Origin: a virus
Reading direction: 5' to 3' (one strand)
Virus record (IMG/VR): IMGVR_UViG_3300042453_004886
Coordinates: 96,001-160,000 of that record
Length of the DNA: 64,000 nt
Numbering within the stretch: the stretch's first letter is position 1; every line of letters begins with the position of its first letter. Position numbers and translations under genes: made by a program. Below the pieces are notes generated by a model that was not told the origin of the DNA, ran no database searches, and saw only the letters and a list, made by a program, of their open reading frames with translations. This document shows, in pieces, positions 1-22,181 of this stretch.

Positions 1-28
1 GGATCCAAAAGCGCCAGGTTCTACAGGT

Positions 29-3000
29 ATGCGTGGAGCGCTTACCGTGCAAGAATTTAGCGCGGCAGCTGTTGTGGCTGCAGGTATTGATTCTGCATAC
101 AGTCAGCTAAACTCTGAGGCAGCAAAACTTACTGGATCCTACAGCGAACATATTTTAGATAAAACTGTGTTTGCAAGAATGATAAAAAAATCTATGAAGG
201 AAGGCTTCAGAGAAACCTTTAAAAACTTTGAAGGTCTTCCCCTTGGCCAGTCTTCTCACGCAAGATCTTTCAAAAGACTTATCTTTGGCTTGACTGTTAG
301 AGAACTATCAAAAGGTACGAGCTTATCTGAGACCGAGAAAAAGGTTTTACTTGAGCAAGCAAGGCTGATGGGCCTTAACAAGACTGAGTCTGGTTTAGTT
401 TCAAGAATACTTAGAAAGGTAGCCGCGTTATTTGGGTTTAAAACACCGGATACTAAAGTTGCTTCTCTCTTGGATCTTTCTGATTACCCTGAAGTAGACC
501 CACACACTCTCGATAGAAGCTTTTACTTGGATGAATTTGATTACGATACAGATTTGATGGGTAATAAAATACAGCACAAAGCAAATGCTCCCAGCGAAGT
601 TATACGTGTACTCGAAAACGGAACCCGAGTAGAAAAATCAAAATTAAGGTTCACCGTACTTGCTCAGAGTCTAAGTCACGAAGCTCCTGCAAACATCTTT
701 ATAACAGAAGGTTTTAACGAGCTTTACGCGTTTAACTACGATTCAACTGCAGAAACTCTCTACGGTTTTCTAAACGCCGCTAAACCAGATGCTCTACCAC
801 AGCGTCAGCAGAACATGTTGGGTTCTGACACTGGTTTACTTACAGTTACGGGTAGTGCGGCAGAATATATTAAAAAAGTAAAACTAAAAATAAAAGGACC
901 TGAAAAGGACTCAGCAGGAAACGTTTTAGAATCTCGTGCAAGGTTTGGAAACAGATTTAACATCCTACTTATGAATGGTATGGGTGAATCTACCTTCATG
1001 AACTCAAAAGTCATGAATGGTGCCTATGTTACCCGAGAAATCAAAAAAACAAAAAGTTACTTTACAGGTAGCGTAGGTGGTTCGATTACAAATGATGAAA
1101 TATCATTTATTGACCAAAGACTGAAACGGGACAAAGAAGGTAACTGGACTTTATACGATCCAAAAAGTAAAAAATACGAAAGAGTATCCCAAGAGGATGG
1201 AAAACCACTTCTTACAATAGATATAGATCAAAGAAACATAAAGCTTTTGGAATTCTTTAACTCCGAGGGGGTTAAAACCGATTCCACAATGCCAAACCCT
1301 ATCTATGACATGTCCGGGCACAAACTGGAAATCATGGACATACAGACCAGTATGGGTGCCAGTGGAAAGCTCGAAATAGAGTTCAACTACAGGGTTCTTT
1401 CACCTGCAGGCGGATCTATGAGAATCTTGTCCAGCGGTCTAAAAATGGTCACTGTAGGTGTAAAGGGTGGCTTTTTTGATGTCATTGCAGGCGGAATAAA
1501 CAAATCTATTGAGTCTTTAAAATCCGAGGACTTGACCTATAGAACAAAAGAAGGCGGATCCTTAAGTCTTGGTACCTACGGAGAATTCTATCAAGACGTG
1601 TTTACCATGTGGGGTAAAAAAATAGATCCCTCGATGTCTGAAAAACAAAAAGAATCCATGACAGGTGAAATGATTCACTTGATGGTAGGTGAATCTATTG
1701 TAAAAACAGGCGTTGTATTCCTGCAGACAGCTGCAATTCGTTTAGAAGAAAAAAGATTTTACAGCAGGGTTGTTGACATATTTAGTGATGACGCAAAGTT
1801 TGATGTATTTAAAAGAATGCTTGAAAGCTTTGAAAAACAGTCTGAATCAGCAAAAAAAGGTACCGGTATTAATAGGACTATCTTAAAAGGTATCAATCAT
1901 CTTTTAGGAGGCTCTGGCTTAGACGAGGTAAAACTTACCGAAGAGCTTAAACAAAAAAATAGAAAAAATCTACTTAAGTCAATCAGATCAATAAGAAATA
2001 AACTACTTAGAGGTGACGATTTCGGTACCGTACTCAGTAGCATATCGGACAAGCACGCCCTGACAGCGGCAGCAGCCCTGCACGTCATGCAATCCATGCT
2101 GGCTGGCGTAAAAGCAGATAGCTTCATGGAAGAGACGTCCAGGCGTCTTTCTGGTGCGGCTATCACACCGATGAACGAACCTCAATTTGACTTTAGCACG
2201 CCGGTTCCCTTGGTGCTTGACGACGCTTTCTCAGTAAAAGCTTTTCCAATGTCTAACCGCATGAGCGCTCTTATGCCAGGAAACCAAGCTGGTAGCCATA
2301 CTCAAACTGTTCTTGGAGCTCTGTCTAGAAACCTGGGAGTCGAAAAACGAGATAGACAGCTGTCAGAACTTTTTTCGCTGGCTTACTTGGGAGGAAGTGC
2401 AACTCAGATTGCTCAAAGAGCACTCGGTAAAAAATCAAAGGTATCCATCAAAGATCTTAGTTCATTCCATCAAGATTACATGCCAAGTCTTCTTATTGGT
2501 GGTGTCAACTTTGAACCACTTGCTTATGCATTTGCAGGCATGTCCAGAGAACACGAAGCTGCGTTTGGAACTATAACAGATTCAGTAAGAAGGCTTACAT
2601 ATGAAGATCTAAGTCCAGAAGAAATAAAAATAGAAGAAGCTAAGGCTATAGAAGCAGTAAAAAGTTTAGGTACACCAGGTACAAGAATTGCTCAAAACTT
2701 TTCTTCTGGTGTGCAGTCTGCAAGATCAGACATGAAGATATTTGAGCTCATGAAAAAATACAAGGTAGGCTCACCTAGAATGAGAATACCTGTTTTTGAG
2801 TTTACTGCTGTAGGTAGCGGCAGAAACAGATTCAGTGCTTCAAACCTTGTGGCCTATGAAGAGGTCTCGTTGCTCTCTGCTGAAACGTTGACGGAACTTC
2901 AGGGTGTGTTTAGCGACTTTTCCTCCGAAATATTTGACTTGCACGTAGAAGCAATGCGAGGGCTGCACAAAGTAAGAGCTCTCAGGCTTCAAATGGCTGC

Positions 3001-6000
3001 TACAGGAGGTTTGGTTACAAAAGAAACCAGAGACCAGTACTTGGGATACTTGGACAAGATAAGAAGGCTTCAAAGCGAAATAGAAAACCTTGCTGCAACA
3101 GATGTTCAAAAATCCGGAGCAAACATTATTGGAGGCTTTGCTGTAATTGCTAACTTTATACCTGGCTTTCACAACATGAAGCTAGGTGAAGATCAAAACA
3201 TAAGGACTTTTGAAACTTCAATCATAGTTGGTGACGAAGTCATGATGAGAGTCATGAACAAAGCAGAAAAAGCTATGAAAGCAGCAGACTCTCTTGTAGA
3301 TAGAAAAGAGTTCAAAGAAAAGCTATCAAAAAAAGCGCAGAAAGCTATGGATAACCATCTTAAAAAAGTAACAAAAGCTGCAGATGTAAAGTTTGAAGCT
3401 GCCTTGCTTGAAAGCACGGATGACGCAAAAGGATACACTTCTAAAAAATCAGGTGTAGGTAAGATCCTTGAAGGATTTACCAATCTTGGTGCTGACTACT
3501 ACAAAAAAATGAGTACTATTTCGTCAACTTCCACATTCTTGAATAGTTTAATAAACATAAGTGAAGCATTTGAAACTATTTACGGAGTTCAGATATCTGG
3601 AAAAACTAATATTGATGACGTTGTAAAAACTTTTACAAGATCAGACGATACTAGTTATTTCCGTACACAGGGCTCTCAAGATTTTTCACAAAACATTCAA
3701 CAGCTAAAAGCTTTAAAGCACGCTCAATCTGTACTTGGAACAGGGACAAGTACATACCTAGACAGTGAGCTACAAGTTCACAAAGAAAACATTCTAAAAG
3801 GTGTAGCTAATACAATCAAAGCACTCCAAAACGAAAAGAAATACGGTCAAGAAGTAGCTACACTAGCAAAATCATTTGAAGCTCTAAGAAAAGACCTTTT
3901 CTGGGTTAATCGAGTAAAAGAACTTAAAAAGATTGGCGAGGGCGGAGAGTTTGAAAGCGTTCAGGAAGCAAGAGATATTATCTTTAATAAGTTATCAAAA
4001 GTAACCGATTTTATAAGATACTTTGAAGATACCCCAAGACTAGGACTGGACAGAGATATAATTCTTCAAAGATTAAGGAAAGACAGAGATAAACTATTAA
4101 AAGAAAAATCAATCGTTGACACAATTATTAAAAAAGAACAAAGAATTATAGACAACGAAGATAAAGTAAAAAATATAATACGTTCCATACAAAAAAAGAG
4201 TCAAGGATCTACTCTTGGTGAAGTTTTAAGTGAAAGAACAAAAGTTACAGAAGAAAACGGAGAAAAAAAGAAGTCTGTATCAACAGAAGTTATTGGATCC
4301 TTTGGTCAAGCAAACGTTGACTTGTTACGGGTACAACTAAGCATATTTGAAAACAAAGCCAGAATGGCCGGGCTGTCTAAGGGTGTAGCAGACGTTCTTC
4401 ACGACACAATAAGAATGAAGAAGTTTGAAATTGCACTCTACGAAAATAGATTAAACCCTGCTGACTTAAGAAAAGGTATAGATACTTTAAAAAATCTAAT
4501 TAACTCAACAAATAATATGAGCGATAAAAAGTATTACGGAAAAATGCTTGATGTTGCTCAGTACAGGTTAGAAGTATCTACAGGCACTAAACGTAGTAAA
4601 AACAACCTTATAAAGAGAAGCGCAGAAGACGTATCTCATGCTCTCTATGCAGCCGGATTTAGCGTTCTTCAAGCTGTGGAAGATGAGTCTTCTCAAAACT
4701 CATTTGGCAGTGAAGACGAAACTGTAAAATATGTAAGAAAAGTTCAAAACCTTCTTGGTGTTTCTAATGTAAAAAATGCACTTCAACTAAGAAGTTACTT
4801 AAGAGGCATAGGGCTAGAATCTGCTTACAGCAGAGCGGGTGCTCCACTTGGATCTGAAGGTGGTGTCAAGTCTGCTCCTATATTCTCAATAAGAGAAGGA
4901 AATAGAATATTCAGACAGCTTGGTACAAGTTTTGAACTTGATGAAAAAGCCAATAGACGTTCTATATTCTTACACATGAGCGGAATGGCTCTTAATCTGG
5001 GTGACTTTGACGGTGACGTTGCAATTCTCACAACTATTGAAAGATACACATTCCTTGAACACTTAAAGCACAAACTCGGTGGAGAAGATAACCTTATTGA
5101 CGTAGAAAGATCTGCAAAAGAACTCATCAAGCAGCTTGAGCAAGCGGGTGCAGATAAAGGCACCATAGATGAATATAGGCTTCTTATAAGCAAACAACGA
5201 GATCCACTTACTAATAACTTGCTAAACCTGAAAGAAGAATATTTAAATCTAAAAACTTCTGTTACGGACTCAGCAAGAAGACTTGTAAGCACTCACATTG
5301 CCGAATACTGGGGTCTTGGAGAGAATGGTCTTTCAAAGCTTGCAGCAAACTATTATGGTAACGCTTACACGGATCCTGATGCTGACAAAGAACTTCTTGA
5401 ACAAAGACTTGCTGTCAAGCTCAATAAGTTCTCGAGTGATATGTACAGCAGCCTTCGCGAAAAAGCATCCAAACTCATAGATAAAAAGATAGCTCAATCA
5501 GACAATTTTGATAAGACTGCAAAAGCTTATGAAGCTCTTCAAGATAACGAAGAATACAGAAAGCATGTAAGAGAGTGGGTTAATAAAGATTCAGGAGCTC
5601 TTGTTGAAGAAAGTTTGGGTGATTTAAAAAACATTTTCAGCACAATAGCCGGTGTTGAGATGTCAGCAGATGAGATTTTAAGATTTGGTATCAAGACTGC
5701 TTTTGCATCTACAAAACTGATTGGTAACTTCTCTAATTTGCAAAATACCCAGCACGCACTATCCACCATGAGCAAGTTTGCAAGTCAAAAATTTTACACT
5801 GACGTTATAAACACATATGCAAATGTAAGTGGTGGGGACATCAGAGCAGTTGCTCCAGAAATTGAGTCCCACTACCAGCAGCTTCAAAAAGAAAAGCAAG
5901 AAACGTTAAATATTATTGTTAGCAGTAATCAGGGTTTCATGCAAAGACTGCAGCAGGCAACTCGTGATGCAATCAAGCCAAAAACTTCAGGTGCTACAAG

Positions 6001-7759
6001 CGAATCCAATAAAGGTGTCCTGCAAGAGCTTTATGAAGATAGCGTACTCATTCGAGCTATTGATGCTTCTGTAGCTCTTGTAACGGGTAAATCTTTATTT
6101 GGAAATTCTGTTAACTACAGTTTTAACAGCGCAAACGAACAAAAAATTCTTCGTAGCCTGAATGTTAACGAACTTATCAAGATTGAAACTACACCAGATG
6201 GTTCAACTCGAGCAACCTTAAAAACCGACTACGATTCAAGCTTAAAGTTTATTGTAGACGAATTGCTTGATCCTCTCGTGCGTGCTTCCAAAGACGAGCA
6301 CAGAGCAAGGGCTCTTTTACAAGAACGCTGGAAAGGAAAAGAACTAGACGCAGCTCAAAAAGACGCTTTGACCAACATAGATATCCAAGCAGAAACTCAA
6401 GCACTCATGTATGGAAAACTTCTTATAAACCAGTTCCAAGACATCAAGAGAATTTTGAAATACAGAAAAGCAGCTGAGTCCGCCGGGGAGGACGGATTTG
6501 AAAGAGCTCGATTCGGATTATCCAGACAGCTTAAACTTGTGTTCTTGCAAGAACACATGCGAGGTGGTCGCCTCAATACACCAGAAGCATTCCAGCGCGT
6601 TGTAGGAGACGTTTATCAAGATTACGCAAAAGCTGAGATGCTTGATTCTCTTGAATCCGATGCAAGAGCACTCGACCCCACAGGAAGGCTTTACGACAGC
6701 TTGCTTCCGGCTTTCAGTAAATATGCTCAGGGTGAAAATGAACTTGAAATTTATAAAGCCCTCGTTCGTAAAAACCCGGAACAATACACGGCTCTAGGAA
6801 ATATTCACATGGCGCTGGTAGAAGCCGCCACTGGTCAGAATCCTTTGGAAACCGTACAGCAAGTCATGCAGCTCAGAGAAGAAAAAGTAAAAGAAGTTTA
6901 TGCTGGACAAATCGAGAAAAAGATAGAAGCAGTCGGTAAAGCTAAAACGGTTGTATCGATGGCTATAGGAGGTTTCCTTGTAATGGGCGGTTTGGCCGCA
7001 ACAGAAGCTCACGCCGCAACAACTGATAAAGATAAAGAATCACCCTTCAGGGATAAAAAAGATTCTCTTACAAAAGTTATTACTGAAACCATCTTTAACT
7101 GGGAACCCCATTTAACCGCTGCTTCTATATACTCCCAGCAAGGGTTTGATACCAATTCTAAACTTGTTGCAATCGCTGGCTTAACCGCAACCATGGCTGC
7201 AGCTCATGTAGCAACTGGTTTTTCTGAAAGACTCGTCAAGAAAGCAGGATTCAGATCTGCAGACGGAATGACCTTTAATAAAAACTTGGAACACGCGGGC
7301 GGTTTGCTTGGAGTAGTTTCTGCTGTATTTGCAGGAAGTGCTATTTCAGGAATTCAAGAAGAATTCATGAAGCGCGAAATGAGAACCCCTGTCAGCAATC
7401 TTGCTACTCAAATAACTGAAGAACTTGCTACCCGAGACGCAATTATCATGGCTTCTTCTGAAGATATTACTGATCTAACAGACCAAGAAGATGCAGTAGT
7501 TGAACTAGCTTACGATGAAAATGGAGATGCTATTCCTGTTCCAGAAGGACTTACTAGAGATGAGGCGCTTAACATGAGTGACGAAAATCACTCAAGCGTT
7601 CCTATGATGCTTACAGAGCGCGACAACATGGGTATTCCAGAAGTCTACAAGAATCCCGTGCTTGATGAAAATGGAAAAGTTACACGTCCTTCAAGAACAC
7701 CGCAAGAAAACTACAAAGATGCCCTTAGAGAGCACAGAATTAGAACTGGTGGTTTGTAG
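29..7759 (+). CDS. Giant virion-associated protein with two-barrel RNA-polymerase-like catalytic domain (putative virion RNAP / ejection protein); probably extends 5' of the window
   Basis: RSIFLHMSGMALNLGDFDGDVAIL (DFDGD at nt 5003-5017) aligns with beta-prime [24 protein letters not shown]. An upstream SRAGAP resembles NRAP, and GLKMVTVGVKGG resembles the beta K..KG motif. Three hydrophobic segments lie near the C-terminus. The frame is open from nt 2, so the start may lie outside the window. Confidence 0.65.
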   Translation: MRGALTVQEFSAAAVVAAGIDSAYSQLNSEAAKLTGSYSEHILDKTVFARMIKKSMKEGFRETFKNFEGLPLGQSSHARSFKRLIFGLTVRELSKGTSLSETEKKVLLEQARLMGLNKTESGLVSRILRKVAALFGFKTPDTKVASLLDLSDYPEVDPHTLDRSFYLDEFDYDTDLMGNKIQHKANAPSEVIRVLENGTRVEKSKLRFTVLAQSLSHEAPANIFITEGFNELYAFNYDSTAETLYGFLNAAKPDALPQRQQNMLGSDTGLLTVTGSAAEYIKKVKLKIKGPEKDSAGNVLESRARFGNRFNILLMNGMGESTFMNSKVMNGAYVTREIKKTKSYFTGSVGGSITNDEISFIDQRLKRDKEGNWTLYDPKSKKYERVSQEDGKPLLTIDIDQRNIKLLEFFNSEGVKTDSTMPNPIYDMSGHKLEIMDIQTSMGASGKLEIEFNYRVLSPAGGSMRILSSGLKMVTVGVKGGFFDVIAGGINKSIESLKSEDLTYRTKEGGSLSLGTYGEFYQDVFTMWGKKIDPSMSEKQKESMTGEMIHLMVGESIVKTGVVFLQTAAIRLEEKRFYSRVVDIFSDDAKFDVFKRMLESFEKQSESAKKGTGINRTILKGINHLLGGSGLDEVKLTEELKQKNRKNLLKSIRSIRNKLLRGDDFGTVLSSISDKHALTAAAALHVMQSMLAGVKADSFMEETSRRLSGAAITPMNEPQFDFSTPVPLVLDDAFSVKAFPMSNRMSALMPGNQAGSHTQTVLGALSRNLGVEKRDRQLSELFSLAYLGGSATQIAQRALGKKSKVSIKDLSSFHQDYMPSLLIGGVNFEPLAYAFAGMSREHEAAFGTITDSVRRLTYEDLSPEEIKIEEAKAIEAVKSLGTPGTRIAQNFSSGVQSARSDMKIFELMKKYKVGSPRMRIPVFEFTAVGSGRNRFSASNLVAYEEVSLLSAETLTELQGVFSDFSSEIFDLHVEAMRGLHKVRALRLQMAATGGLVTKETRDQYLGYLDKIRRLQSEIENLAATDVQKSGANIIGGFAVIANFIPGFHNMKLGEDQNIRTFETSIIVGDEVMMRVMNKAEKAMKAADSLVDRKEFKEKLSKKAQKAMDNHLKKVTKAADVKFEAALLESTDDAKGYTSKKSGVGKILEGFTNLGADYYKKMSTISSTSTFLNSLINISEAFETIYGVQISGKTNIDDVVKTFTRSDDTSYFRTQGSQDFSQNIQQLKALKHAQSVLGTGTSTYLDSELQVHKENILKGVANTIKALQNEKKYGQEVATLAKSFEALRKDLFWVNRVKELKKIGEGGEFESVQEARDIIFNKLSKVTDFIRYFEDTPRLGLDRDIILQRLRKDRDKLLKEKSIVDTIIKKEQRIIDNEDKVKNIIRSIQKKSQGSTLGEVLSERTKVTEENGEKKKSVSTEVIGSFGQANVDLLRVQLSIFENKARMAGLSKGVADVLHDTIRMKKFEIALYENRLNPADLRKGIDTLKNLINSTNNMSDKKYYGKMLDVAQYRLEVSTGTKRSKNNLIKRSAEDVSHALYAAGFSVLQAVEDESSQNSFGSEDETVKYVRKVQNLLGVSNVKNALQLRSYLRGIGLESAYSRAGAPLGSEGGVKSAPIFSIREGNRIFRQLGTSFELDEKANRRSIFLHMSGMALNLGDFDGDVAILTTIERYTFLEHLKHKLGGEDNLIDVERSAKELIKQLEQAGADKGTIDEYRLLISKQRDPLTNNLLNLKEEYLNLKTSVTDSARRLVSTHIAEYWGLGENGLSKLAANYYGNAYTDPDADKELLEQRLAVKLNKFSSDMYSSLREKASKLIDKKIAQSDNFDKTAKAYEALQDNEEYRKHVREWVNKDSGALVEESLGDLKNIFSTIAGVEMSADEILRFGIKTAFASTKLIGNFSNLQNTQHALSTMSKFASQKFYTDVINTYANVSGGDIRAVAPEIESHYQQLQKEKQETLNIIVSSNQGFMQRLQQATRDAIKPKTSGATSESNKGVLQELYEDSVLIRAIDASVALVTGKSLFGNSVNYSFNSANEQKILRSLNVNELIKIETTPDGSTRATLKTDYDSSLKFIVDELLDPLVRASKDEHRARALLQERWKGKELDAAQKDALTNIDIQAETQALMYGKLLINQFQDIKRILKYRKAAESAGEDGFERARFGLSRQLKLVFLQEHMRGGRLNTPEAFQRVVGDVYQDYAKAEMLDSLESDARALDPTGRLYDSLLPAFSKYAQGENELEIYKALVRKNPEQYTALGNIHMALVEAATGQNPLETVQQVMQLREEKVKEVYAGQIEKKIEAVGKAKTVVSMAIGGFLVMGGLAATEAHAATTDKDKESPFRDKKDSLTKVITETIFNWEPHLTAASIYSQQGFDTNSKLVAIAGLTATMAAAHVATGFSERLVKKAGFRSADGMTFNKNLEHAGGLLGVVSAVFAGSAISGIQEEFMKREMRTPVSNLATQITEELATRDAIIMASSEDITDLTDQEDAVVELAYDENGDAIPVPEGLTRDEALNMSDENHSSVPMMLTERDNMGIPEVYKNPVLDENGKVTRPSRTPQENYKDALREHRIRTGGL

Positions 7760-8045: not shown

Positions 8046-8411
8046 GACGTCATCTTGCCCCCAAATTTATTTTGAACCCTGGTTTTTATATACTGCCCTT
8101 AAATATTCTAGGATATTCTAGATATTCTTGTCTATAAAATTTATTGAAATAAAATCTAGATTTTCTGTATGCTGAAAATTTTTTAGCTATAAATTTCAGA
8201 TTACTTTATTTGAAAAATTCATTAGAAAACTTGCGGGATATCAATATAGGAAAATCTATATTCTAAACAGCGAAAGTAGAGCTGGATGGATGGGGTTCTA
8301 TATGGTCCCCCGGACACCCCCCTACACCCTACAAGGGTTTAGGGTATCGGTGTTCGTTCTGGACCATAGAGCCACACCTGTGCGTGTGGCCATGCTGCAT
8401 AGGAGGAAACC

Positions 8412-9015: not shown

Positions 9016-9072
9016 CTTTTCAGAGGGGGTCAGCTTTGCTGACCCCCTTTAAAAAGAGCGACTGGTGCGTAC
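9016..9072 (+). promoter_or_regulatory. Hairpin-repeat element copy 1 (putative phage RNAP promoter)
   Basis: AGGGGGTCAGC-TTT-GCTGACCCCCT hairpin + TTAAAAAGAGCGACTGGTGCGTAC, then an ACCCTTTT box; upstream of 9143. Confidence 0.7.
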
Positions 9073-9142
9073 TTAACGTAATAGTCAAACCCTTTTACAG
9101 AGCCACACCTGTGCGTGTGGCCACACTGCAGAGGAGAAAACC

Positions 9143-9640
9143 ATGCAGAAAAAGAAGAAGACCGTCGTCGTCGCTGTGCCCGTCGCCCCCGCCGCCGAGC
9201 CCCGCAAGGGGCTGTTCGCCCGGGTCCTCGAGGCCCTCGGTTTCCGCTCGGCGCCGCTCGTGCGCGACAGCGAGCTCGACCAGCCCAGGCTGTGCCGGAT
9301 GCTCCTTGACAACGCCCTCCGGGGCGAGCGGATGGTGTCGGAGGAGATGCTCAACCGGGGTCGTAAGACCCTGGAGCAGCAGATCCAGGCGGTCAGGGCG
9401 GCTGGGGACTTCCGGGCCCCCGTCGCCACGCCCGTCGCCGTCGCTCCCGTCGCCGTCGCTCCCGCCGCCGCTCCCGCCCGGGTCTGGGGTGTCTTGAACA
9501 CCCTGGATAAGGCACGGCTTCGGGCCTGGTCCCGGGCTTGGTCCGAGGCCCAGGCCGAGGCCCAGCCCGTGGCCGAGCCCGTGGCCGAGCCCGTCGCCAC
9601 CCGGGCCCGGGATGCCCGGGGCCGGTTCGTGAAGGCGTAA
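9143..9640 (+). CDS. Ala-rich basic early protein, paralog B
   Basis: GAGGAG SD; ends RARDARGRFVKA; tandem duplicate of 8412-8915, with shared leader and trailer. Confidence 0.8.
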   Translation: MQKKKKTVVVAVPVAPAAEPRKGLFARVLEALGFRSAPLVRDSELDQPRLCRMLLDNALRGERMVSEEMLNRGRKTLEQQIQAVRAAGDFRAPVATPVAVAPVAVAPAAAPARVWGVLNTLDKARLRAWSRAWSEAQAEAQPVAEPVAEPVATRARDARGRFVKA

Positions 9641-9740
9641 GCCTCACGACCGGCAACAGATCCCCATGGGCCTTGGTAACCCATGGGGACGCGTAGAGGT
9701 TTAGTAGTCTCATCCTATTAGAAAAACTACTTTTCTTTTC

Positions 9741-9797
9741 CTTTTTAGAGGGGGTCAGCTTTGCTGACCCCCTTTAAAAAGAGCGACTGGTGCTTAC
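9741..9797 (+). promoter_or_regulatory. Hairpin-repeat element copy 2
   Basis: Same hairpin as copy 1 + TTTAAAAAGAGCGACTGGTGCTTAC. Confidence 0.7.
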
Positions 9798-9855
9798 TGG
9801 AAGTAACAGTCTAACCCTTTTGCGGCCATTTTAATCACGAAAGGAGGTGATAAGT

Positions 9856-10011
9856 ATGCGGATGAGCATGGAAGAGAAGTACGTTCGTAGGCGCCAGAAC
9901 CTGGCGCTGTTCGTTCTTCTCGTCCTGTTCCTCGTCGCTGGCGCGATGGAGAACCCCATGGATCGGTTTTCCTTGGGGTCCTCCACGCCCAGCAGCGTGG
10001 AGCAGGACTAA
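9856..10011 (+). CDS. 51-aa small membrane protein (not in ORF track)
   Basis: AAGGAGGTGA SD; MRMSMEEKYVRRRQNLALFVLLVLFLVAGAMENP..., with one hydrophobic helix. Confidence 0.65.
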   Translation: MRMSMEEKYVRRRQNLALFVLLVLFLVAGAMENPMDRFSLGSSTPSSVEQD

Positions 10012-10020
10012 TTGACTTCC

Positions 10021-10052
10021 TACTCGGCGCTAGCGCCGCAATGCGCTGAGTA
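10021..10052 (+). repeat. Branched hairpin element copy A
   Basis: TACTCGGCGCTAGCGCCGCAATGCGCTGAGTA; near-identical at 12820-12851 and 17333-17364. Confidence 0.8.
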
Positions 10053-10056
10053 GGCT

Positions 10057-10117
10057 CTTTTTGAGAGGGTAGTAGCTTCGGCTGCTGCCCTCTTTAAAAA
10101 GAGGGATCGGTGCTTAC
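10057..10117 (+). promoter_or_regulatory. Hairpin-repeat element copy 3
   Basis: GAGAGGGTAGTAGC-TTCG-GCTGCTGCCCTCT + TTAAAAAGAGGGATCGGTGCTTAC. Confidence 0.7.
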
Positions 10118-10215
10118 CCCTTTCTAAGGTCTTACCAGGCCTTGCTGTCGCACATTCGTCAGAAATCCCTTTCCCCCCTTTCAGGGGGGATTTTGCCATG
10201 AAAGGAGAAACTACC

Positions 10216-11649
10216 ATGGCAAGCTCAATTCGCGACGCGTTCCTCCCCCTCATTCCGGAGCTGAAGCTCCGGCAGGAGGCGCGGAGGGAAGCCCTCCGCG
10301 CGGACCGCCGGCAGGCCCGGGCAGAGGCCCGAGAGGCCGGCAAGGCCAAGGAGGCGCTCCGGGCGGCTAAGCGGTCCGAGCGCCGCGCCGCCCGCCAGGT
10401 GGCCGCCCATGAGCGCCGCGAGGCCCTCAAGGCGGCCTTTGCAAAGGCCGCCGAGGGCCGCCCCAAGTGGGTCCAGGTCGCCTCCCGGGTGCTACTCATT
10501 CACCCGGACGAGGTCGCTAGACGGCCTCGAAAGGCCGTCCTGGGAGCGCTTCCCACCTGGGCGCTCGTGGACCTGTACTGCCCAGACCCCTTCTGGGAAG
10601 GGGTTATCTGGGAAAACCTCTTCCACGAGGGGGAGGAGCTTATTTCCCGAGAGTTCCTGGAGAAGATCCTCCGGGGCACTTCTTGGAAAAAGCTCCAAGA
10701 GGCTTTTTCCAGATGGTGCCAGCTCGAAAACAGGCCCCCGGAGTGGGAGCCCTACGCGGCGTGGAAGTTCTTTATCTCCGGTGTTTACACGGGGGGCAAG
10801 AAGTTCTTCCCGCTAGCGGGAAGGGTCAGCCACATCCAGGGCATCCTGGAGCACGGCCCAGCGCCGGAAACCCTGTCGGAGGAGGACCTGGATGCCTACG
10901 TCCGGCATCCTGGGGAGTTCAGGCTGAGTGAGCTCCTGGAGAGCGCCGAGGATCGGAAGAACCTCGCGGTTCTCCAAGAGTACCTGGAGCGCCAGCGGGA
11001 GACGTATCTCCCGGAGGAGTTCCGGGAGATCACTGCCAATCAGATCCTCAGCAGGTGGAAGACGCACAAAGACGTGCGCTTCCGCCTGGAAGGGCAGGAG
11101 TGGAGCTCTCCCGACGGGAAGATGGCGGCCCGGTTCTTGCCCAGGACCGACATCAGGGGGCTGCTGGCCGGTGACATCACCGACTGCTGCCAGCACCCTA
11201 TCGGGGCAGGGTCCGAGGCTGCCTGGGACGCGGTCAGGCAGCCCAGCACGGGCAACCTGGCCTTCTTCCGGAAGGGCCGGATTGTGGCATTTACCTGGGT
11301 GTGGGAAGCCCAGGACGGGAGCATGGTGCTTGACTCGATCGAGTACCTGAGCTCCCGCTACATGCCAGAGGTGGCTCAGGCACTTGCTGCTTTTGCAAAG
11401 CAGCTGAGGTGTGAAGGAGTCTCCACCTTTTGGGTTGGGGGCTACTCTGAAGCAGAGCTGGCCTCCCAAGTCCGGGTCCTGGCGGGATTGCTAGGCAGTC
11501 CTCGGTGGGTAAAGGCTTCCCAAGAGGGGGCCTCCCTGAATGGGGAAACTCTCCAGGGCCCCAACCTGGTCCCTTCCGGGGAATTGCCAAAGCCCGTCTT
11601 TTGGATGGGCTACTCGGACCTGCACTACAACATAGTCAGGTTCGATTGA
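10216..11649 (+). CDS. PcfJ-like domain protein (GNAT-like fold)
   Basis: C-terminal GDITDCCQHPIG...AFTWVW...MVLDSIE pattern resembles phage PcfJ-like proteins. The N-terminus is an Ala/Arg/Glu coiled region. Start chosen at the ATG after the AAGGAG SD (ORF track start 10198). Confidence 0.5.
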   Translation: MASSIRDAFLPLIPELKLRQEARREALRADRRQARAEAREAGKAKEALRAAKRSERRAARQVAAHERREALKAAFAKAAEGRPKWVQVASRVLLIHPDEVARRPRKAVLGALPTWALVDLYCPDPFWEGVIWENLFHEGEELISREFLEKILRGTSWKKLQEAFSRWCQLENRPPEWEPYAAWKFFISGVYTGGKKFFPLAGRVSHIQGILEHGPAPETLSEEDLDAYVRHPGEFRLSELLESAEDRKNLAVLQEYLERQRETYLPEEFREITANQILSRWKTHKDVRFRLEGQEWSSPDGKMAARFLPRTDIRGLLAGDITDCCQHPIGAGSEAAWDAVRQPSTGNLAFFRKGRIVAFTWVWEAQDGSMVLDSIEYLSSRYMPEVAQALAAFAKQLRCEGVSTFWVGGYSEAELASQVRVLAGLLGSPRWVKASQEGASLNGETLQGPNLVPSGELPKPVFWMGYSDLHYNIVRFD

Positions 11650-11692
11650 TGGGCTGGAGTTTGGTAGTACCTCCATCAATAAAAACTACCAC

Positions 11693-11758
11693 CTTTTTTA
11701 GAGGGGCACACAGCTTAGGCTGTGTTGCCCCTCTTTAAAAAGAGGAACTGGTGCGTAC
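11693..11758 (+). promoter_or_regulatory. Hairpin-repeat element copy 4
   Basis: AGAGGGGCACACAGC-TTAG-GCTGTGTTGCCCCTCT + TTAAAAAGAGGAACTGGTGCGTAC. Confidence 0.7.
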
Positions 11759-11801
11759 TGGACGTATTGGTTTACCCCTTAGCTCTTGAAAGGAGCTAAA
11801 G

Positions 11802-12227
11802 GTGATCACCGTTTGCAACAAGGAAAACTACCTTATTATTGAGGACGAGGTGCTCGACCTCGTCCGAGGCCAGTACCCCGCAGGAGGGCTGGCCCAAGTC
11901 GTCGGTGCGGAGAGCTCGCACCGGGTCGTCACTCTCCGGGACTGCGGAGACCTAGTGGGCATTTGCCTGCTTGACGTCGAGGAGGCCACGGTCGACGACC
12001 TCGTCGTCAAACCCAGGTACAGAAAGTACCTGGGCGAGATGCTCGCCTCGGTCCGAGAGATCGCCGGAGAAGGGGCTTGGACGGCGTACTGCCGGGCTAA
12101 GACGTCTGCTGTCACCGTTCGGGCTATGGCCCGCAGGGGGCAGCTGAGGCTTCTCCATCTCGGAGAGCCGGAGTACGACGACTACTTTGCCGAAGAGATG
12201 GTGGAGGTAGAGTTTCAGCTACTCTAG
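11802..12227 (+). CDS. GNAT-fold acetyltransferase-like protein
   Basis: LVGICLLDVEEATVDDLVVKPRYRKY resembles GNAT motif A; AAGGAG SD, GTG start. Confidence 0.45.
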   Translation: MITVCNKENYLIIEDEVLDLVRGQYPAGGLAQVVGAESSHRVVTLRDCGDLVGICLLDVEEATVDDLVVKPRYRKYLGEMLASVREIAGEGAWTAYCRAKTSAVTVRAMARRGQLRLLHLGEPEYDDYFAEEMVEVEFQLL

Positions 12228-12254
12228 CCTCCTTCCTGAGTGACTTCCTGAAAC

Positions 12255-12320
12255 CTTTTTTAGAGGGGCACACGGCTTAGGCTGTGTTGCCCCTCTTTAA
12301 AAAGAGGGAATGGTGCGTGC
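12255..12320 (+). promoter_or_regulatory. Hairpin-repeat element copy 5
   Basis: Hairpin as in copy 4 + TTAAAAAGAGGGAATGGTGCGTGC. Confidence 0.7.
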
Positions 12321-12364
12321 ATTGGGCAGCACTTAACCCCCTTTCATGTTCAGGAAGGATCCAC

Positions 12365-12550
12365 ATGAACATGAATGCCACCCGGAGCGATGTGTTCCGG
12401 GCTGTCGTGCAGGAGAACAAAATCCTGCGCGAGCGTCTTGAGGAATGTCAGAGGTTGATCAATCTCTTTTCGGACCTCGAGACGCGCCTTGCTGAAGAAA
12501 GGGCAAGGCAAATTGAGTTTGAACGGGAGCTCTTCTGGAGCTGCCGTTAA
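12365..12550 (+). CDS. Small coiled-coil hypothetical protein
   Basis: GGAAGG SD before ATG 12365, in frame with ORF 12284-12550. Confidence 0.6.
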   Translation: MNMNATRSDVFRAVVQENKILRERLEECQRLINLFSDLETRLAEERARQIEFERELFWSCR

Positions 12551-12557
12551 AACTCAC

Positions 12558-12612
12558 CTTTTTGAGAGGGGGCAGGGATGCCCCCTCTTTAAAAAGAGGG
12601 ACCGGTGCGTAC
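12558..12612 (+). promoter_or_regulatory. Hairpin-repeat element copy 6
   Basis: GAGGGGGCA-GGGA-TGCCCCCTC + TTTAAAAAGAGGGACCGGTGCGTAC. Confidence 0.7.
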
Positions 12613-12672
12613 TGGATGCATTGGTTTACCCCTTTGTTACGCGGCCATCTCTAAAAGAAAGGAGGTGATTAC

Positions 12673-12801
12673 ATGATGGAGTCGGATTTCCTCCGGGCCG
12701 AAGCGGCCCTCGAGGAGGCGATCCTCCGGGCTGAAGAAGCTGCCGAAACGGCGGCAGCCCGGGAGGAGTGGGCCGCTGCTTTCGCGGCGGTCTGGGGTTA
12801 G
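12673..12801 (+). CDS. 42-aa acidic helical peptide, copy 1 (not in ORF track)
   Basis: AAGGAGGTGA SD; MMESDFLRAEAALEEAILRAEEAAETAAAREEWAAAFAAVWG; paralog at 17191. Confidence 0.75.
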   Translation: MMESDFLRAEAALEEAILRAEEAAETAAAREEWAAAFAAVWG

Positions 12802-12819
12802 TTTTTTCGTTTCTTTTCC

Positions 12820-12851
12820 TACTCGGCGCTAGCGCCGCAATGCGATGAGTA
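12820..12851 (+). repeat. Branched hairpin element copy B
   Basis: TACTCGGCGCTAGCGCCGCAATGCGATGAGTA. Confidence 0.8.
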
Positions 12852-12855
12852 GGCT

Positions 12856-12916
12856 CTTTTTGAGAGGGTAGTAGCTTTAGCTGCTGCCCTCTTTAAAAAG
12901 AGGGACCGGTGCGTAC
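12856..12916 (+). promoter_or_regulatory. Hairpin-repeat element copy 7
   Basis: Same type as copy 3 + GAGGGACCGGTGCGTAC. Confidence 0.7.
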
Positions 12917-13011
12917 TAGCACTAAAGGTTTCCTCCCAGAAACAAAGGAAGATGAGCTCACTCGGTGAGATCTTCCTTGCTGTCAGAGACAGCAATGTTG
13001 CGTACATAAAA

Positions 13012-13053
13012 GCGGGGTCTAACCCCTCTTTAAAAAGAGGAATTGGTGCGTAC
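13012..13053 (+). promoter_or_regulatory. Hairpin-repeat element copy 8 (short hairpin)
   Basis: GGGG-TCTAA-CCCCTCTTTAAAAAGAGGAATTGGTGCGTAC, directly upstream of RNAP-like gene 1. Confidence 0.65.
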
Positions 13054-13171
13054 ACGCATTAAATGTCTTCCTTTTTTCCCCGGATTTTTTATCGCGTAAT
13101 CCGGTGATCGCCATATACTTGGCGCCCTTTGCTCGGGGAGAGAGCGTTTTCAGCGCATGAGGAGGAAACCA

Positions 13172-16100
13172 ATGCGTATGAACAAATTGGTGAATCAAAA
13201 GCACCAAGCGCTGGCGAAGCTGGCGGTGGAGAGATTCAAGAAAGCACAGGAAGCTCCTGAGGAGAAACCTGAGCCGACTATGGATCTCATCGCTCGGGCG
13301 AACGAGAAGGCTGTTGAATACAGCCGGCTTCGTAAGCTTGCCCTTGAAGTTCTCTCTCATGAGAGCTCTGAAGAGGGCTGTGTCGAATTCGGGATCAAAC
13401 CTGAAGACGACATGGGCGTAATTCGCCGCAAAGTGGTGAACCGTTTCAAAGCGGGTAACCACTCGGTGGTCCGGGGCGAGCTCAAGACGCTGTTCCCTCG
13501 TCACGAGGAGGACATCTACGAGCCCGCCGAGGTCACCAAGCAGGATGTTGCCGACATGGCACTCCTGTTCGGCGCGGAGTGGCCCACCGACGAAGCCTTC
13601 GGCTTGTTCGGTGTTACCTTTGACTGGGACAATGCCGGAAGGCTTGTTGTCAACGGTAAGAAGGCTCTGAGGAACGTCATCGCCGTTTTCGGTGGTGGTA
13701 TGCCTCACGAGCTCTTTCAATATCAGACTGCAGCTCTGGTATTGTTGGCCGCCCAAGGTGCTGCAGCCCAGGAGCGTGAGAGGTTTGCATCAAACGCAAG
13801 CCCTTACCAGGTCCAGAAAGCGCTGACGAAAGCCTTCCAGAAGGTGATCAACAGCGGGCCTGTGAACAAGGGTAGCGAACAACCGGCCTACGGGTTTGTT
13901 GATGCAACCTGTGCGCTCCGACTCAAGGAGATCGTTCGACCGATCGAAGTCCTGCTGGTAGAAGATAGCATCGTCTACCTGGAGCAGATTGATCCCATTC
14001 TTGGCAACAAGATGGTGAAAGAACTGCACCCGGACTACGGTGTGGATATCGAATCGGGTAACTACCGGCCTGCCGGTAAGATGCTCGACGAGAACCACAT
14101 CGCGGTAAGGTCGAGCGATGGGGCCAAAAGTGCCAAGCGCACCCGTATGGCCTCAGGTGAGCAACAGGAACCGGTGAATCCTGTGCTCTCTCGTGTTTCC
14201 TACAGAGGAACTCGAGCAACCGGCTCCCTGATCACCGCGTTCCTTGCGCCGTGTGCAGACCCGTTCTTGGCGGGTGGTCCTGGCGGTAGCCTTGATTTGT
14301 CGGGTGAAACCGGCGTCAAGACCAGCTACTGGGACGACGCGCTGCACAGCGGCACGAGCTTCGATATCCGTTCCGCCGAGGATAGAGAAGCCTTCCTGAA
14401 CACCCTCCCCAGCGATGGGGATGTTCTCGGCGAGACCCTTAGCGTGTTTGGCGCCCCACCTGTCAAGGTGCCTTCAGACGCTAGGGGCGTGGTCACTAAG
14501 GTGACCGCGGCCCCCGATGGAGCCTACCGCAATATGCGGTGGCAGGTGCATAGTCGTTTCAAGGAAACTTCTGTGTTCACCAAGCTCCGCGGATCAATCA
14601 AGACGATGGTCTCTGCAGGCCTAGTTGCGAAGATCCGACTCGGGGAAGGGTCCATCACCCACTTCGACATCCGCAATAGCGGACTTGCCCTGTCGGGGTG
14701 GGAAGGAGAGGATTTGTTCCTCTCAGGAGACGCATTCAAGGGAACCGGGAAAGGCAACAGCCAATTCCGGGTGGAAGTCGCCGTTGAAACGATATGGCAT
14801 TTCCTTCCTTTGGAAGCGGACAGTCTCCTATCCTCTCTGCTCCCGGAGGCGCTCTACAAGGGCGGAATCGTGGAGTATGACGAGGCGTTCGATCTCGACG
14901 GGGCTTACGAGCCTCTGATGAGGGAATTCGAGCGTCGTTTTGCCAAAGTCGCTGACCTTGGTAAGACAGTCGAACTGCCTGAAGTCTGGGACAAGTGGTT
15001 GCTTGAGCATGCCACGAAGGTCGGGCTGAAGGTGGAAGACCTCGTCTGGAGCCCCTTCCAAAAGGAGGGAGTCACTGGCAAGCAGGTGGCTTTCAACATT
15101 GGTAAGGGTATCACGGGGCTCCCAGAGTACCGCGTATTTGTACTTTACGACGATGGCTGCAAGGCTGTTGTGAGGACCACGACTGCGTTTAAAACCGCGA
15201 TGTTGGTCCGTGTAGAGTACGGAAGCGTCAGGAAGGCAGCCAGCAAGGCCCAACTTATGCTCGAAGTCGCTTACGGCGCTAAGGCAATGGGTCTTGACGA
15301 GCTCGCTGAGTTCCTCGAGTACGAGGGGCGTTCCAAAGCGCGTGCGGTGCTCAAGCTCATCCGTTCGGTTGGTCCCAAGGCAGCAATTGCTGAGGGAAGT
15401 CGAGTAATCGATGCCGCCGAAGCAACGGATGAGGACCTGCTTGAGATCGAAACCCTGCTCGAGAGTGATCTCGAAGCATGGCCGGAAGATCTTGTTATCG
15501 AATGCAAGTTCGAGGACAAGAACGGAAAGCTGTGGAGAGTTGTCTTGGCTCACCACTTGGTTTCGGTCATCTCAAAGGAGAACCCCCAGAGAAAGGCAAT
15601 CTCTGGCATTCTCGATGCGATCCTTAACAAAGATCGTACAAGGTTCGAGAATAACATCCGGGTCCTTGAAGGTGGGCTGTCTAACATGGTTTCTTTGGCC
15701 AATAAGAAACTGTGGAAGAAGGTTCACGCAGGTCCAAATGCTGCACACGGTAAGCGGGTCATCGTACTCGCCTCTCACGTGGGCTGCCATGAGGAACTGC
15801 TCGTCAATCCGTTCGGCAAAAATGCTAGACATCTAGCCAAGCAGAACGGTTGCGAGATCAAGGAACTGGATGGGCGGTGGGTAGTCGTCCAGCGAGCTCC
15901 ACAAAGCCTGCCGATTTTGCTGAGAATCGTGTTAACCACGGCTATCGGTAAGAACGTGTTCGGCATGACGGACCTTGCTGCCTCGATCGACAACGGCGAT
16001 CACGATGGAGACACTATCCTCGTGACGGTCATCCCTGACCAAATCGCCGAAGTGACCCTGCAGAAGTACAACGCTCGCAGAAAGTCGCTGTCGATTCACG

Positions 16101-16975
16101 AGGGTACGCACAAGGCGGATCCGTATCACTGGATCGAGCAAAACACGTTTGTGGATGGAAAACACAACGTCTGGGCTCGTCCTTCCGTGGTTACGGTTGA
16201 AAACTTGCGCAAGTACGACGAGGCGGGCATCCGGGCATATACACTTGAAATGCCTTCGGATGCCAACAGGGCACACCTCGCCCTTGCCATCGCTTCGATG
16301 CAGCTTCCCACAGGCTGGGGGGAGTTCAGCATCGAGGAGGCCAACGGCCTGATGTTCAGCGTCTACGAGCCGGAGCTTGGTGGTTTTAACCCCAAGTTCG
16401 CTGCTGCTCATGCCGCAATTGCCAATCTTGGCAATGAACGTCTCAAGGAGTTCCTCCAAGCTACGGATAAGCTCGACCTTCGGGAAGACTTCGCCAAGGC
16501 TTGGCTTCGGTCCGCAGATGCCAAAAGCTGGTGTCAGAAGACCGTGAGTTACGCAAAGTTTAACAGCAATGGAAAGCTTTCCGTATGGAACCTCACCCAG
16601 GCCACGGTCCCTCAGGAGCAGAGGCTCGCAGCCGTACCCAGGTTAGTTGCTTTTGCAATGAAACTCCTGTCAGTTGGGAACGTCAACAACCAGTTGATGC
16701 TCAATCTGGACAAGGTCGTTGTCGAGAGCATGGTCAAGGAGACCAAGGGCGAAAACCGGCGTTACTACCCGGTTCTAGTCAAGGGTAAGCCAGAAGTGGT
16801 CGAGCTGAAAAGCGTGATCAAGAAACTGGCAGCAAAGGGAGTCCCGGGCGCTCAGCGCTTGGAGATCTGGATGGACCACATCCTCCCTGAGTTCTCCAAG
16901 TACCACCCCAAGGAGTACCATGCCGCAATGGCCTTCAACGGGGACTACGATTGTTCCGATTCGGAGGAAGAATAG
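13172..16975 (+). CDS. Single-chain two-barrel RNA-polymerase-like protein, paralog 1
   Basis: VVVQRAP...[14 protein letters not shown] (nt 15998-16012) matches beta-prime NRAP...[29 protein letters not shown] resembles [28 protein letters not shown] supplies a DPBB-B-type lysine pair. GAGGAGG SD before ATG 13172. Confidence 0.72.
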   Translation: [1267 protein letters not shown]

Positions 16976-17070
16976 CAAACTGATCGGGAACTTGGCGGCT
17001 TTGTCTTAAGAACGCACAGAAAGTGCAAAAGCAAAGCTGCTAAGTTACCTGATCAAGACAACTAAATAAC

Positions 17071-17132
17071 CTTTTTAACAGAGGGGGCTGGTTCATTCCA
17101 GTACCCCTCTTTAAAAAGAGGGACCGGTGCGT
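17071..17132 (+). promoter_or_regulatory. Hairpin-repeat element copy 9
   Basis: GAGGGG(G)CTGG-TTCATT-CCAG(TA)CCCCTC + TTTAAAAAGAGGGACCGGTGCGT. Confidence 0.7.
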
Positions 17133-17190
17133 CGGTGCGTCCAAGGTGCAACCCTTTTGCGGCCACTTAATCACGAAAGGAGGTGATTAC

Positions 17191-17310
17191 ATGATGGAAG
17201 ACTTCCTCGCGGAGGCCATCCTCCGGGCTGAAGAAGCTGCCGAAACGGCAGCAGCCCGGGAGGAGTGGGCAGCTGCTTTTGAAGCCCTGGACCAGTGGGT
17301 CTGGGGCTAG
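17191..17310 (+). CDS. 39-aa acidic helical peptide, copy 2 (not in ORF track)
   Basis: AAGGAGGTGA SD; MMEDFLAEAILRAEEAAETAAAREEWAAAFEALDQWVWG. Confidence 0.75.
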   Translation: MMEDFLAEAILRAEEAAETAAAREEWAAAFEALDQWVWG

Positions 17311-17332
17311 TTTCTTGTTTGTTTTCCTTTCC

Positions 17333-17364
17333 TGCTCGGCGCTAGCGCCGCAATGCGTTGAGTA
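17333..17364 (+). repeat. Branched hairpin element copy C
   Basis: TGCTCGGCGCTAGCGCCGCAATGCGTTGAGTA. Confidence 0.8.
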
Positions 17365-17368
17365 GGCT

Positions 17369-17427
17369 CTTTTTGAGAGGGTAGTAGCTTCGGCTGCTGC
17401 CCTCTTTAAAAAGAGGGACCGGTGCGT
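17369..17427 (+). promoter_or_regulatory. Hairpin-repeat element copy 10
   Basis: Same type as copies 3 and 7, directly upstream of RNAP-like gene 2. Confidence 0.7.
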
Positions 17428-17548
17428 CGGTGCGTCCAAGGTGCAACCCTTTTTGCAGGTTTTTCTCGTGGAACCTGATGATCGCCATACAGCTGGCGCC
17501 TTTTGGTCGGGGAGTGACCGCATGCTAGTCGAAAGAAAAGGTAGGACT

Positions 17549-21127: not shown

Positions 21128-21217
21128 CTGTGTCACAAATAAACTCGAGCTATCCCACGAACGCACACGAAGTGCAAGGGATGCTCGAGTTTTGCTGTGA
21201 TTCGATCAACTAAATAA

Positions 21218-21281
21218 CTTTTTAACAGGGGGGCTTGGTTCATTCCAATGCCCCTCTTTAAAAAGGGTAACTGGTGCGTAC
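21218..21281 (+). promoter_or_regulatory. Hairpin-repeat element copy 11
   Basis: Hairpin like copy 9 + TTTAAAAAGGGTAACTGGTGCGTAC, then an ACCCCT box. Confidence 0.65.
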
Positions 21282-22107: not shown

Positions 22108-22181
22108 CGAAGGGCAGCTCGGGGACCCCAGAACGCTTCGCGTTCTGGGGTCCCAACCCCAGCGGTTCACTTTGTCTGTTT

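Follow-up and report, generated by a model that had tools for sequence, protein, structure and literature searches.

Two-barrel RNA polymerases (RNAPs) of giant size that are carried in the virion are, to our knowledge, found in few groups only: the crAss-like phages, the P23-45-like phages, and the jumbo phages with multisubunit enzymes. Gp96 of Thermus phage P23-45 is a giant two-barrel RNAP of the virion that is joined in one polypeptide to the tape measure protein; an invariant DFDGD is the only clue in its sequence, and the enzyme transcribes the pre-early genes, including that of a non-virion RNAP (PMC10770324). Gp66 of the Cellulophaga crAss-like phage phi14:2 (PDB 6VR4) is described as a large virion-packaged single-chain two-barrel RNAP with a DFDxD motif that is thought to be ejected for the early genes. 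The virion RNAP (vRNAP) of coliphage N4 (gp50, ∼3,500 amino acids, aa) is likewise described as an enzyme that the capsid carries and that is ejected together with the DNA, with three parts (N-terminal, polymerase, C-terminal), hairpin promoters, and a second phage RNAP that takes over. The N4 enzyme is a T7-like single-subunit polymerase of unrelated fold and is not known to have a DxDGD loop. Here we describe a 64,000-nucleotide stretch of virus record IMGVR_UViG_3300042453_004886 (hereafter the window; positions 96001-160000 of a 194,626-bp record rated complete by CheckV), which opens within a giant gene whose product, P0002, shares the invariant DFDGD of gp96 and is similar in size to N4 vRNAP. 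We consider P0002 to be, moderately probably, a virion-packaged, ejected, single-chain two-barrel RNAP that works with the products of two smaller RNAP-like genes nearby.

The initial annotation, made from the window alone, had reported a giant open reading frame (ORF) and supposed that the protein was longer than the window shows. Both points held. The frame at window 2..7759 (+) is open up to the window start, retrieval of the upstream sequence added 712 residues, and in the whole record the gene occupies 93866-103759 and encodes 3,297 aa. Its start codon is an ATG that follows a GAGG and lies 2,135 nt before the window begins, which places the ATG at window 29 inside the gene; residue n of P0002 starts at window position 3n−2137. 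A word-indexed homolog search identified six relatives of P0002. When 1.84 billion representative proteins were scanned exhaustively with a profile, the family proved rare, with 26 members, all full-length ones being 2.3–3.8 thousand aa long. Repeating the homolog search with a 24-sequence profile returned only six members, all already known, and a tblastn search with the giant protein found no match in 50,697 GenBank phage records.

The polymerase reading is carried by a set of conserved residues. Among the 24 full-length members, which are 16–44% identical to P0002, the invariant positions are K973, Q979, R980, R1186, K1193, K1280, T1288, S1463, R2323, P2327, G2379, D2380, D2382, G2383, D2384, Q2697, R2700, and K2704, and position 1041, 145 residues before R1186, is acidic in all 24 (D in 16, E in 8). 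Because G2379, D2380, D2382, G2383, and D2384 are among these, the DFDGD first noticed in the window is a real motif rather than a chance string. Eight residues are common to every two-barrel RNAP (Ruprich-Robert and Thuriaux, PMC2919709): barrel B supplies one Asp and two basic residues (D837, K979, and K987 in Rpb2; D709, R738, and K743 in QDE-1), and barrel A supplies an R-x-P motif (R446 and P448 in Rpb1; R962/P964 in QDE-1) and three Asp (D479, D481, and D483 in Rpb1). Judging from the alignment, the giant family has a candidate for each of these residues in the same order: D/E1041, R1186, K1193, R2323, P2327, D2380, D2382, and D2384. The DxDxD characteristic of two-barrel RNAPs is present, D2380, D2382, G2383, and D2384 being retained even in the distant homolog gp080 of Microcystis phage Ma-LMM01 described below. 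Position 1041 is a candidate equivalent of Rpb2 D837, the fourth Mg-binding carboxylate. R1186 and K1193 lie 6–7 residues apart in a G-D/M-R...G-x-K loop between modeled strands, and motif resemblance together with a structure model (predicted local distance difference test, pLDDT, 57–73 at this place) makes them candidates for the basic pair of barrel B. The initial annotation had looked for a second barrel in a K..KG motif about 1200 aa upstream of the DFDGD region; this motif lies in GLKMVTVGVKGG at residues 1191-1202 (window 1436-1471; 1,187 residues upstream), and although the basic pair R1186/K1193 is indeed found there, the second lysine, K1200, is not conserved.

Beyond single residues, eight motifs of the family would be colinear with E. 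coli RpoB and then RpoC (Table 1), a resemblance between motifs and not a statistical result. SRAGAP, at residues 2322-2327, stands ahead of the DFDGD, and the LQQxAR(D/E)AIKPK motif closes a long helix just ahead of a disordered loop. The large helical region first noted between the two sets of motifs was borne out as a lineage-variable insertion of ∼500 aa in P0002 and ∼100 aa in the homolog P0021, the alignment stretch from residue 1757 to residue 2323 measuring 566 residues in the former and ∼104 in the latter. On the motif map, this insertion would fall between the two halves of the beta'-type barrel.

The N-terminus of P0002 is of a different nature. It matches Pfam PLDc_2 (PF13091; E 1e-13, 51.8 bits as compared with a cut-off of 27) and contains two HKD motifs, HYKFLGVD...GSFN (residues 299-322) and HAKTALIY...GSAN (residues 532-553), whose H, K, and N are nearly invariant in the 24-member alignment. 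The domain, whose score exceeds the Pfam threshold and whose two motifs are of the HxK(x)4D...GSxN type, belongs to the PLD superfamily. Pfam, PHROGs, and PDB sequence searches gave no match in the other ∼2,700 residues, and library searches with the window part of the protein and with a 7-sequence family profile gave none outside the PLD domain. Near the C-terminus, three hydrophobic segments rich in Gly and Ala (Kyte-Doolittle, 19-residue window, score above 1.5) probably insert into a membrane, as judged by their hydropathy.

A homolog in a cultured phage was reached through structure. A Foldseek comparison with viral models led to a protein of Microcystis phage LMM01 labeled 'PLD phosphodiesterase domain-containing protein', whose counterpart in NC_008562 is gp080, a 3,562-aa protein that is annotated under that name or as 'hypothetical protein'. 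By hhalign, the family profile matches gp080 with a probability of 92% (E 6e-7) over the DFDGD segment, and gp080 retains the first of the HKD motifs, K973, Q979, R980, the acidic residue, R1186, K1280, S1463, R...P, GDFDGD, and QQxxRDAIKPK; it is a true member of the giant family. It is very distant from P0002, with no tblastn match and a second HKD motif that aligns poorly. Like P0002, it is encoded divergently beside head genes and has a companion RNAP-like gene (gp064).

The genomic setting of the giant gene is constant. At every locus with a readable gene map it is divergent from a Portal_Mu portal gene, with a few small ORFs between, and in the present genome its neighbors are the portal gene (phrog_113, E 3e-43), a gene for a head protease-like protein, and, farther away, a tail sheath gene. 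The phage is therefore a myovirus, and its sheath is closest to those of Microcoleus and Microcystis cyanophages (31–34% identity). P0002 has no cysteine in its 3,297 aa, and the 24 giants together have one in ∼75,000 residues; the cysteine content is 0.7% in the two RNAP-like proteins and 0.15–0.7% in the structural proteins of this phage. In the published RNA-seq table, gp080 of Ma-LMM01 has no reads at the first post-infection time point and belongs to the middle class, and the early cluster gp054-gp063 is already expressed at that time. Portal adjacency, absence of cysteine, hydrophobic helices, and non-early expression are all consistent with late synthesis, packaging, and unfolded passage through the tail, although none of these features proves it directly. 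Packaging had already been suggested in the initial annotation, and the portal, the lack of cysteine, and the non-early homolog now speak for it; the argument then offered, an AT-rich composition, lends no support because the gene has a G+C content of 40%, which is normal for this phage genome.

The two companion RNAP-like proteins, encoded in tandem, are 33% identical to each other and carry the beta'-like signatures QRAP...GDHDGD and GDFDGE; neither has a Pfam, PDB, or GenBank-phage (tblastn) match. Their relatives lie a few kb from the giant gene at two other loci (L020 and L009), and Ma-LMM01 gp064 (1,673 aa), which adjoins the early cluster, is distantly homologous to them (hhalign probability 94.8%, E 5e-8). 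Between gp064 and gp063, at positions 43271-43551 of Ma-LMM01, a 42-bp unit is repeated six and a half times, where an early promoter region would be expected, gp063 being the first gene of the cluster gp054-gp063. In the relative GCA_037963515.1, a 2,008-aa ORF with a D[FY]DGD motif (L002:20241-26267) lies ∼4 kb downstream of the giant gene; at 26% identity to the first paralog, it may be a longer or fused form of the RNAP-like proteins. Both RNAP-like genes of the present genome lie, together with other ORFs without a family match, in a 20-kb island (window 8000-28000) of 55–61% G+C in a genome of ∼40% G+C; the island may have been acquired recently or may follow another codon or expression regime. 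The island also holds a repeated hairpin element in which a T-run and AGAGGGG are followed by an inner variable stem-loop, then CCCCTCTTTAAAAAGAG, then GGTGCGTAC. The element, which ends in CCTCTTTAAAAAGAG followed by GGTGCGTAC, would be expected ∼0.3 times by chance as compared with the 11 copies seen, and these elements are candidate phage-specific promoters or terminators.

Since catalytic residues of a cell-type RNAP appear in the right order, this phage probably injects its own polymerase, for which we propose the following layout and course of events. A phosphodiesterase head of the PLD type, containing both HKD motifs (residues ∼200-570), would be followed by a beta-like module (∼970-1300) supplying the acidic 1041 and the basic pair R1186 and K1193, and by a beta'-like barrel (1745-1800 and 2316-2395), split by the 500-aa helical insertion, supplying R2323, P2327, and the putatively Mg-binding D2380/D2382/D2384. 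Bridge-helix-like and trigger-loop-like helices (2613-2706) and three membrane-type helices (3026-3165) would complete the chain. Synthesized late, the giant would be loaded by way of the portal or near it and would go through the tail unfolded, which would account for its lack of cysteine. It would then anchor in the membrane and transcribe the first genes to enter the cell, plausibly among them those of the G+C-rich island, where the eleven hairpin elements and both RNAP-like genes lie, and the products of these two genes would take over. By extension, Ma-LMM01-like large myophages in general may run a self-contained multi-polymerase program that is started by an injected 3-kaa fusion of PLD domain, single-chain two-barrel RNAP with a beta'-type barrel split by 100–500 inserted aa, and membrane anchor and continued by one or two smaller single-chain RNAPs at hairpin-type promoters, a generalization that we offer tentatively.

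Such a program would resemble, by analogy, the P23-45 and N4 schemes in its combination of a giant gene, smaller RNAP-like genes, and hairpins. P23-45 has a smaller single-chain partner (gp64, non-virion) and repeated DNA motifs in its early region, and its gp96 has a single-chain core and membrane segments in the same polypeptide, as we propose for P0002. The two giants nevertheless differ in most other respects. They have no detectable sequence homology (hhalign probability 0.9–3%); the P0002 gene adjoins the portal gene, whereas gp96 is encoded where a tape measure gene stands; the putative core of P0002 lies from the center toward the C-terminus, that of gp96 at the N-terminus; P0002, unlike gp96, has a PLD head and no metallopeptidase, and its barrels would be ∼1,000 residues apart; and the P0002 phage is a myovirus, whereas P23-45 is a siphovirus. 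Gp66 of phi14:2 shows no sequence match to P0002 and is absent among the fold matches listed; it is ∼1,100 residues shorter, is without a PLD domain and C-terminal membrane helices, and comes from the podovirus-like Crassvirales.

Structure prediction gave this layout partial support. For the compact core of P0021 (L019:7776-11108, 1,111 aa), an AlphaFold model made with 24 sequences reached a pLDDT of 63 and a predicted template modeling score (pTM) of 0.50. Six strands form one module, in which the invariant R and K sit on the loop that joins strands five and six; next come a strand and a helix with the K...T motif. Further on come a strand-strand-strand-helix unit (GxxAVxS..P and VLG motifs), three helices, and the succession strand, RAGAP loop, strands, helix, strands, short helix, and DFDGD. 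In this model the strand order is compatible with that expected for a beta'-type double-psi barrel. Although no match to the PDB was obtained with Foldseek at E ≤ 0.001, the highest-probability rows were RNAP subunits: the non-virion RNAP (nvRNAP) of AR9 (7s00_d; E 0.13, probability 0.57), tobacco plastid PEP (8w9z_C; 0.60), and phiKZ nvRNAP (8que_A; 0.18). The 486-residue chain 8que_A is probably the phiKZ beta'-N subunit gp55, in which DFDGD stands at 417-421. Among viral models, a Myoviridae 'DNA-directed RNA polymerase subunit' was matched with a probability of 0.69. Two VIA-align searches of the PDB were filled by a single helical hairpin (model residues 965-1062) and were uninformative on the barrels. 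The suggestion that SRAGAP and DFDGD mirror the beta-prime active-site barrel is strengthened by the invariant residues and the strand order, and domain-wise prediction yielded strands flanking RAGAP and DFDGD rather than an all-helical protein; with a pLDDT of 63 and weak fold matches, however, the barrel folds and the polymerase activity, like packaging and the target genes, are predictions.

Several observations weigh against a polymerase. A first AlphaFold model, of residues 2200-2940 with 8 sequences, had a pLDDT of 52 and was discarded as uninformative; in the P0021 model the DFDGD loop is below a pLDDT of 50, and the segment that follows is modeled as a helix instead of the expected strand. 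The best RNAP fold matches, at E 0.06–0.3, are not significant, and no statistically significant link to any RNAP was obtained by Pfam, PHROGs, PDB sequence, fold, or profile-profile comparison. PF00623 (RNA_pol_Rpb1_2) matched neither the protein (Pfam) nor the six-frame translated genome at E ≤ 10. By hhalign, the family profile gave a probability of 0.9% with P23-45 gp96 over its whole C module and 6% with the RNAP-like neighbors over 19 columns. A spliced barrel-A profile aligned with RpoC at 339-470 (P 0.034), bringing GFAVI together with GRSVI and the DFDGD segments together, with gp96 at 695-789 (P 0.013), and with the RNAP-like family (P 0.0018). The aligned stretch spans the DFDGD of RpoC (460-464) and gp96 (779-783), and in gp064 (1261-1364) it covers GDADGD; anchored mainly on the DFDGD segment, these alignments (P 0.002–0.05) are not significant. 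A barrel-B profile found nothing in gp96, RpoB/RpoC, gp064, or the RNAP-like family. The basic/proline motif is R-x3-P rather than R-x-P, it stands 53 residues before D2380 rather than 30–45, and R2323/P2327 were not paired by hhalign with the RAP of RpoC. The barrels would be ∼1,000 residues apart, which is without precedent. We found no virion proteomics showing packaging, and the early genes of Ma-LMM01 have been reported with sigma70-like promoters (PMC5780444). As for the profiles, single-chain RNAP families have been found to share no similarity beyond the DxDxD region (PMC10770324), and because they diverge in this way, a lack of profile similarity is to be expected whether or not P0002 is a polymerase.

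The same negative results are what would recommend another reading, which we regard as unlikely, namely that P0002 is a giant ejected or internal virion protein whose sole enzyme is the PLD phosphodiesterase (a nuclease or a phospholipase), with the DFDGD and the remaining invariant charged residues used for something other than polymerization, such as the binding of a metal, of DNA, or of the portal. Only for the PLD domain is there a significant family match, none of the RNAP profile or fold matches reaches significance, and most of the chain is helical; a cysteine-free family encoded next to the portal gene would suit such a protein equally. It would not, however, be expected of a protein of this kind that its invariant set agrees in kind and order with the eight-residue signature of two-barrel enzymes, that the IFLH..GMALNLGDFDGD flank resembles IQLHP..AAYNADFDGD of RpoC, or that the highest-probability fold rows are RNAP subunits. 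Calcium-binding loops normally read DxDxDG, which also speaks against this reading. We prefer the RNAP because of the residue signature, the colinearity of the motifs, a compatible model of medium confidence, and the genomic context.

Were the two-barrel core real, its activity could still be another: an RNA-dependent RNA polymerase (RdRP) like QDE-1, a primase-like enzyme, or a PolD-like DNA polymerase, acting on the ejected genome or on host nucleic acids instead of transcribing early genes. The two-barrel superfamily does include RdRPs and PolD, and a fused PLD domain of the nuclease type would suit a nucleic-acid-processing machine. All characterized phage members (phi14:2 gp66, P23-45 gp96/gp64, and YonO, PMC5467207) are DNA-dependent RNAPs, however, and the pairing of the giant gene with a second RNAP-like gene parallels the vRNAP/nvRNAP pair of P23-45, so we consider such an activity improbable. 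That P0002 is the tape measure protein of the tail, perhaps combined with an accessory enzyme in the way that the P23-45 fusion might suggest, is very improbable in spite of its great length, helical stretches, C-terminal hydrophobic segments, and lack of cysteine, and we rejected it on gene position: the gene adjoins the portal and head genes, faces away from them, and does not stand between tail tube or chaperone genes and baseplate genes, the sheath gene is ∼17 kb off, other giant ORFs lie downstream of the sheath gene, neither Pfam nor PHROGs gave a tape-measure match, the conserved core contains beta-rich modules, and the Ma-LMM01 homolog is outside the tail module. An N4-type (T7-like) polymerase was likewise rejected, there being no such profile match and the chemistry being that of DxDGD.

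If P0002 is a virion RNAP, it would represent a further, sequence-unrelated family of such enzymes with a new architecture (PLD head, far-apart barrels, and membrane tail), a fusion not described before, and its deep-branching members would be available for studies of two-barrel polymerase evolution. The family extends to Microcystis phages that are available in culture and that control toxic blooms. Published descriptions credit these phages with no RNA polymerase (PMC5780444, PMC9927357). In the transcriptome study of Ma-LMM01, all temporal classes were attributed to host sigma70 (PMC5780444), and the genome of MaMV-DH01 was described as being without an RNA polymerase (PMC9927357). Among the papers searched, none links Ma-LMM01-type phages to two-barrel polymerases, and Microcystis phages are not named in the supplement to the P23-45 study. 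If the reading is correct, these cyanophages, described as wholly dependent on host RNAP, would carry polymerases of their own, and an injected polymerase followed by a second phage polymerase would be a direct, testable answer to the timing of the three classes, for which the literature could not account.

Table 1. Positions of P0002 features, companion genes, and hairpin elements, with the E. coli RpoB or RpoC motifs that the P0002 motifs resemble (P0002 motif and starting residue in brackets).
Feature	P0002 residues	Window position	Strand	Basis or remarks	Resembling RpoB/RpoC motif
Giant gene, part in window	713-3297	2..7759	+	ORF	
PLD domain	∼200-570	wholly upstream of window	+	Pfam PLDc_2	
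Motif I, K-x5-Q-R-x-Q-N	973-983	782..814	+	K973, Q979, R980 invariant; would be colinear with RpoB	RpoB NMQRQ (LPQRQQN, 977)
GxG[D/E] motif	1041 (acidic)	977..997	+	Candidate fourth Mg carboxylate (Rpb2 D837)	RpoB NFEDS (GMGES, 1038)
Candidate beta-type barrel catalytic loop	1182-1202	1409..1471	+	R1186, K1193 invariant; includes GLKMVTVGVKGG	RpoB GDK...GNKG (GxxR...GLK, 1182)
G-x-S-I-x-K-T-G...L-x-T	1273-1290	1682..1735	+	K1280, T1288 invariant; strand then helix; would be colinear with RpoB	RpoB GGQRFGEME + helix (VGESIVKTG + helix, 1274)
Candidate beta'-type barrel, first half	1745-1800	3098..3265	+	QK..G..GGFAVIA..P, then IVGDE + helix	RpoC GKRVDYSGRSVITVGP (QKSG..GGFAVIANFIP, 1748) ... 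CGLP + helix (IVGDE + helix, 1787)
Insertion	∼1801-2300	3266..4765	+	Lineage-variable, mostly helical, K/E-rich	
Candidate beta'-type barrel, second half	2316-2395	4811..5050	+	RAGAP (R2323, P2327 invariant), IFLH..GMALNLGDFDGD	RpoC NRAPTLH (SRAGAPLG, 2322); RpoC IQLHP..AAYNADFDGD (IFLH..GMALNLGDFDGD, 2367)
DFDGD	2380-2384	5003..5017	+	Putative Mg-binding catalytic loop; invariant in family	
FAS(T)xLIG in long helix	2613-2626	5702..5743	+	Bridge-helix candidate	
LQQxAR(D/E)AIKPK	2695-2706	5948..5983	+	Q2697, R2700, K2704 invariant; trigger-loop candidate	
Three hydrophobic Gly/Ala-rich segments	3026-3046, 3100-3118, 3144-3164	6941..7360	+	Hydropathy	
Hairpin element, eleven copies		9044..21267 (genome 105044-117267)	+	Only in G+C-rich island	
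Two paralogous single-chain RNAP-like genes (1,272 and 1,228 aa)		13157-16975, 17441-21127	+		

Elsewhere in the record, two more giant ORFs lie outside the window, of 2,667 aa (genome 18870-26873, −) and 3,208 aa (48917-58543, −). PHROGs scans of these, aimed at finding the tape measure protein, gave no informative family match; the product of the 2,667-aa ORF, with a single cysteine, may likewise be ejected or of the tape-measure type. At record positions 147-196 the final 50 bases of the record are found again, but the final 100 have no second copy, which indicates a short repeat near the ends and not a clean terminal overlap. Finally, three consecutive ORFs at window 50547-58192 (719, 914, and 903 aa) each contain an F5/8 type C (discoidin) carbohydrate-binding domain and are probably receptor-binding or fiber proteins.

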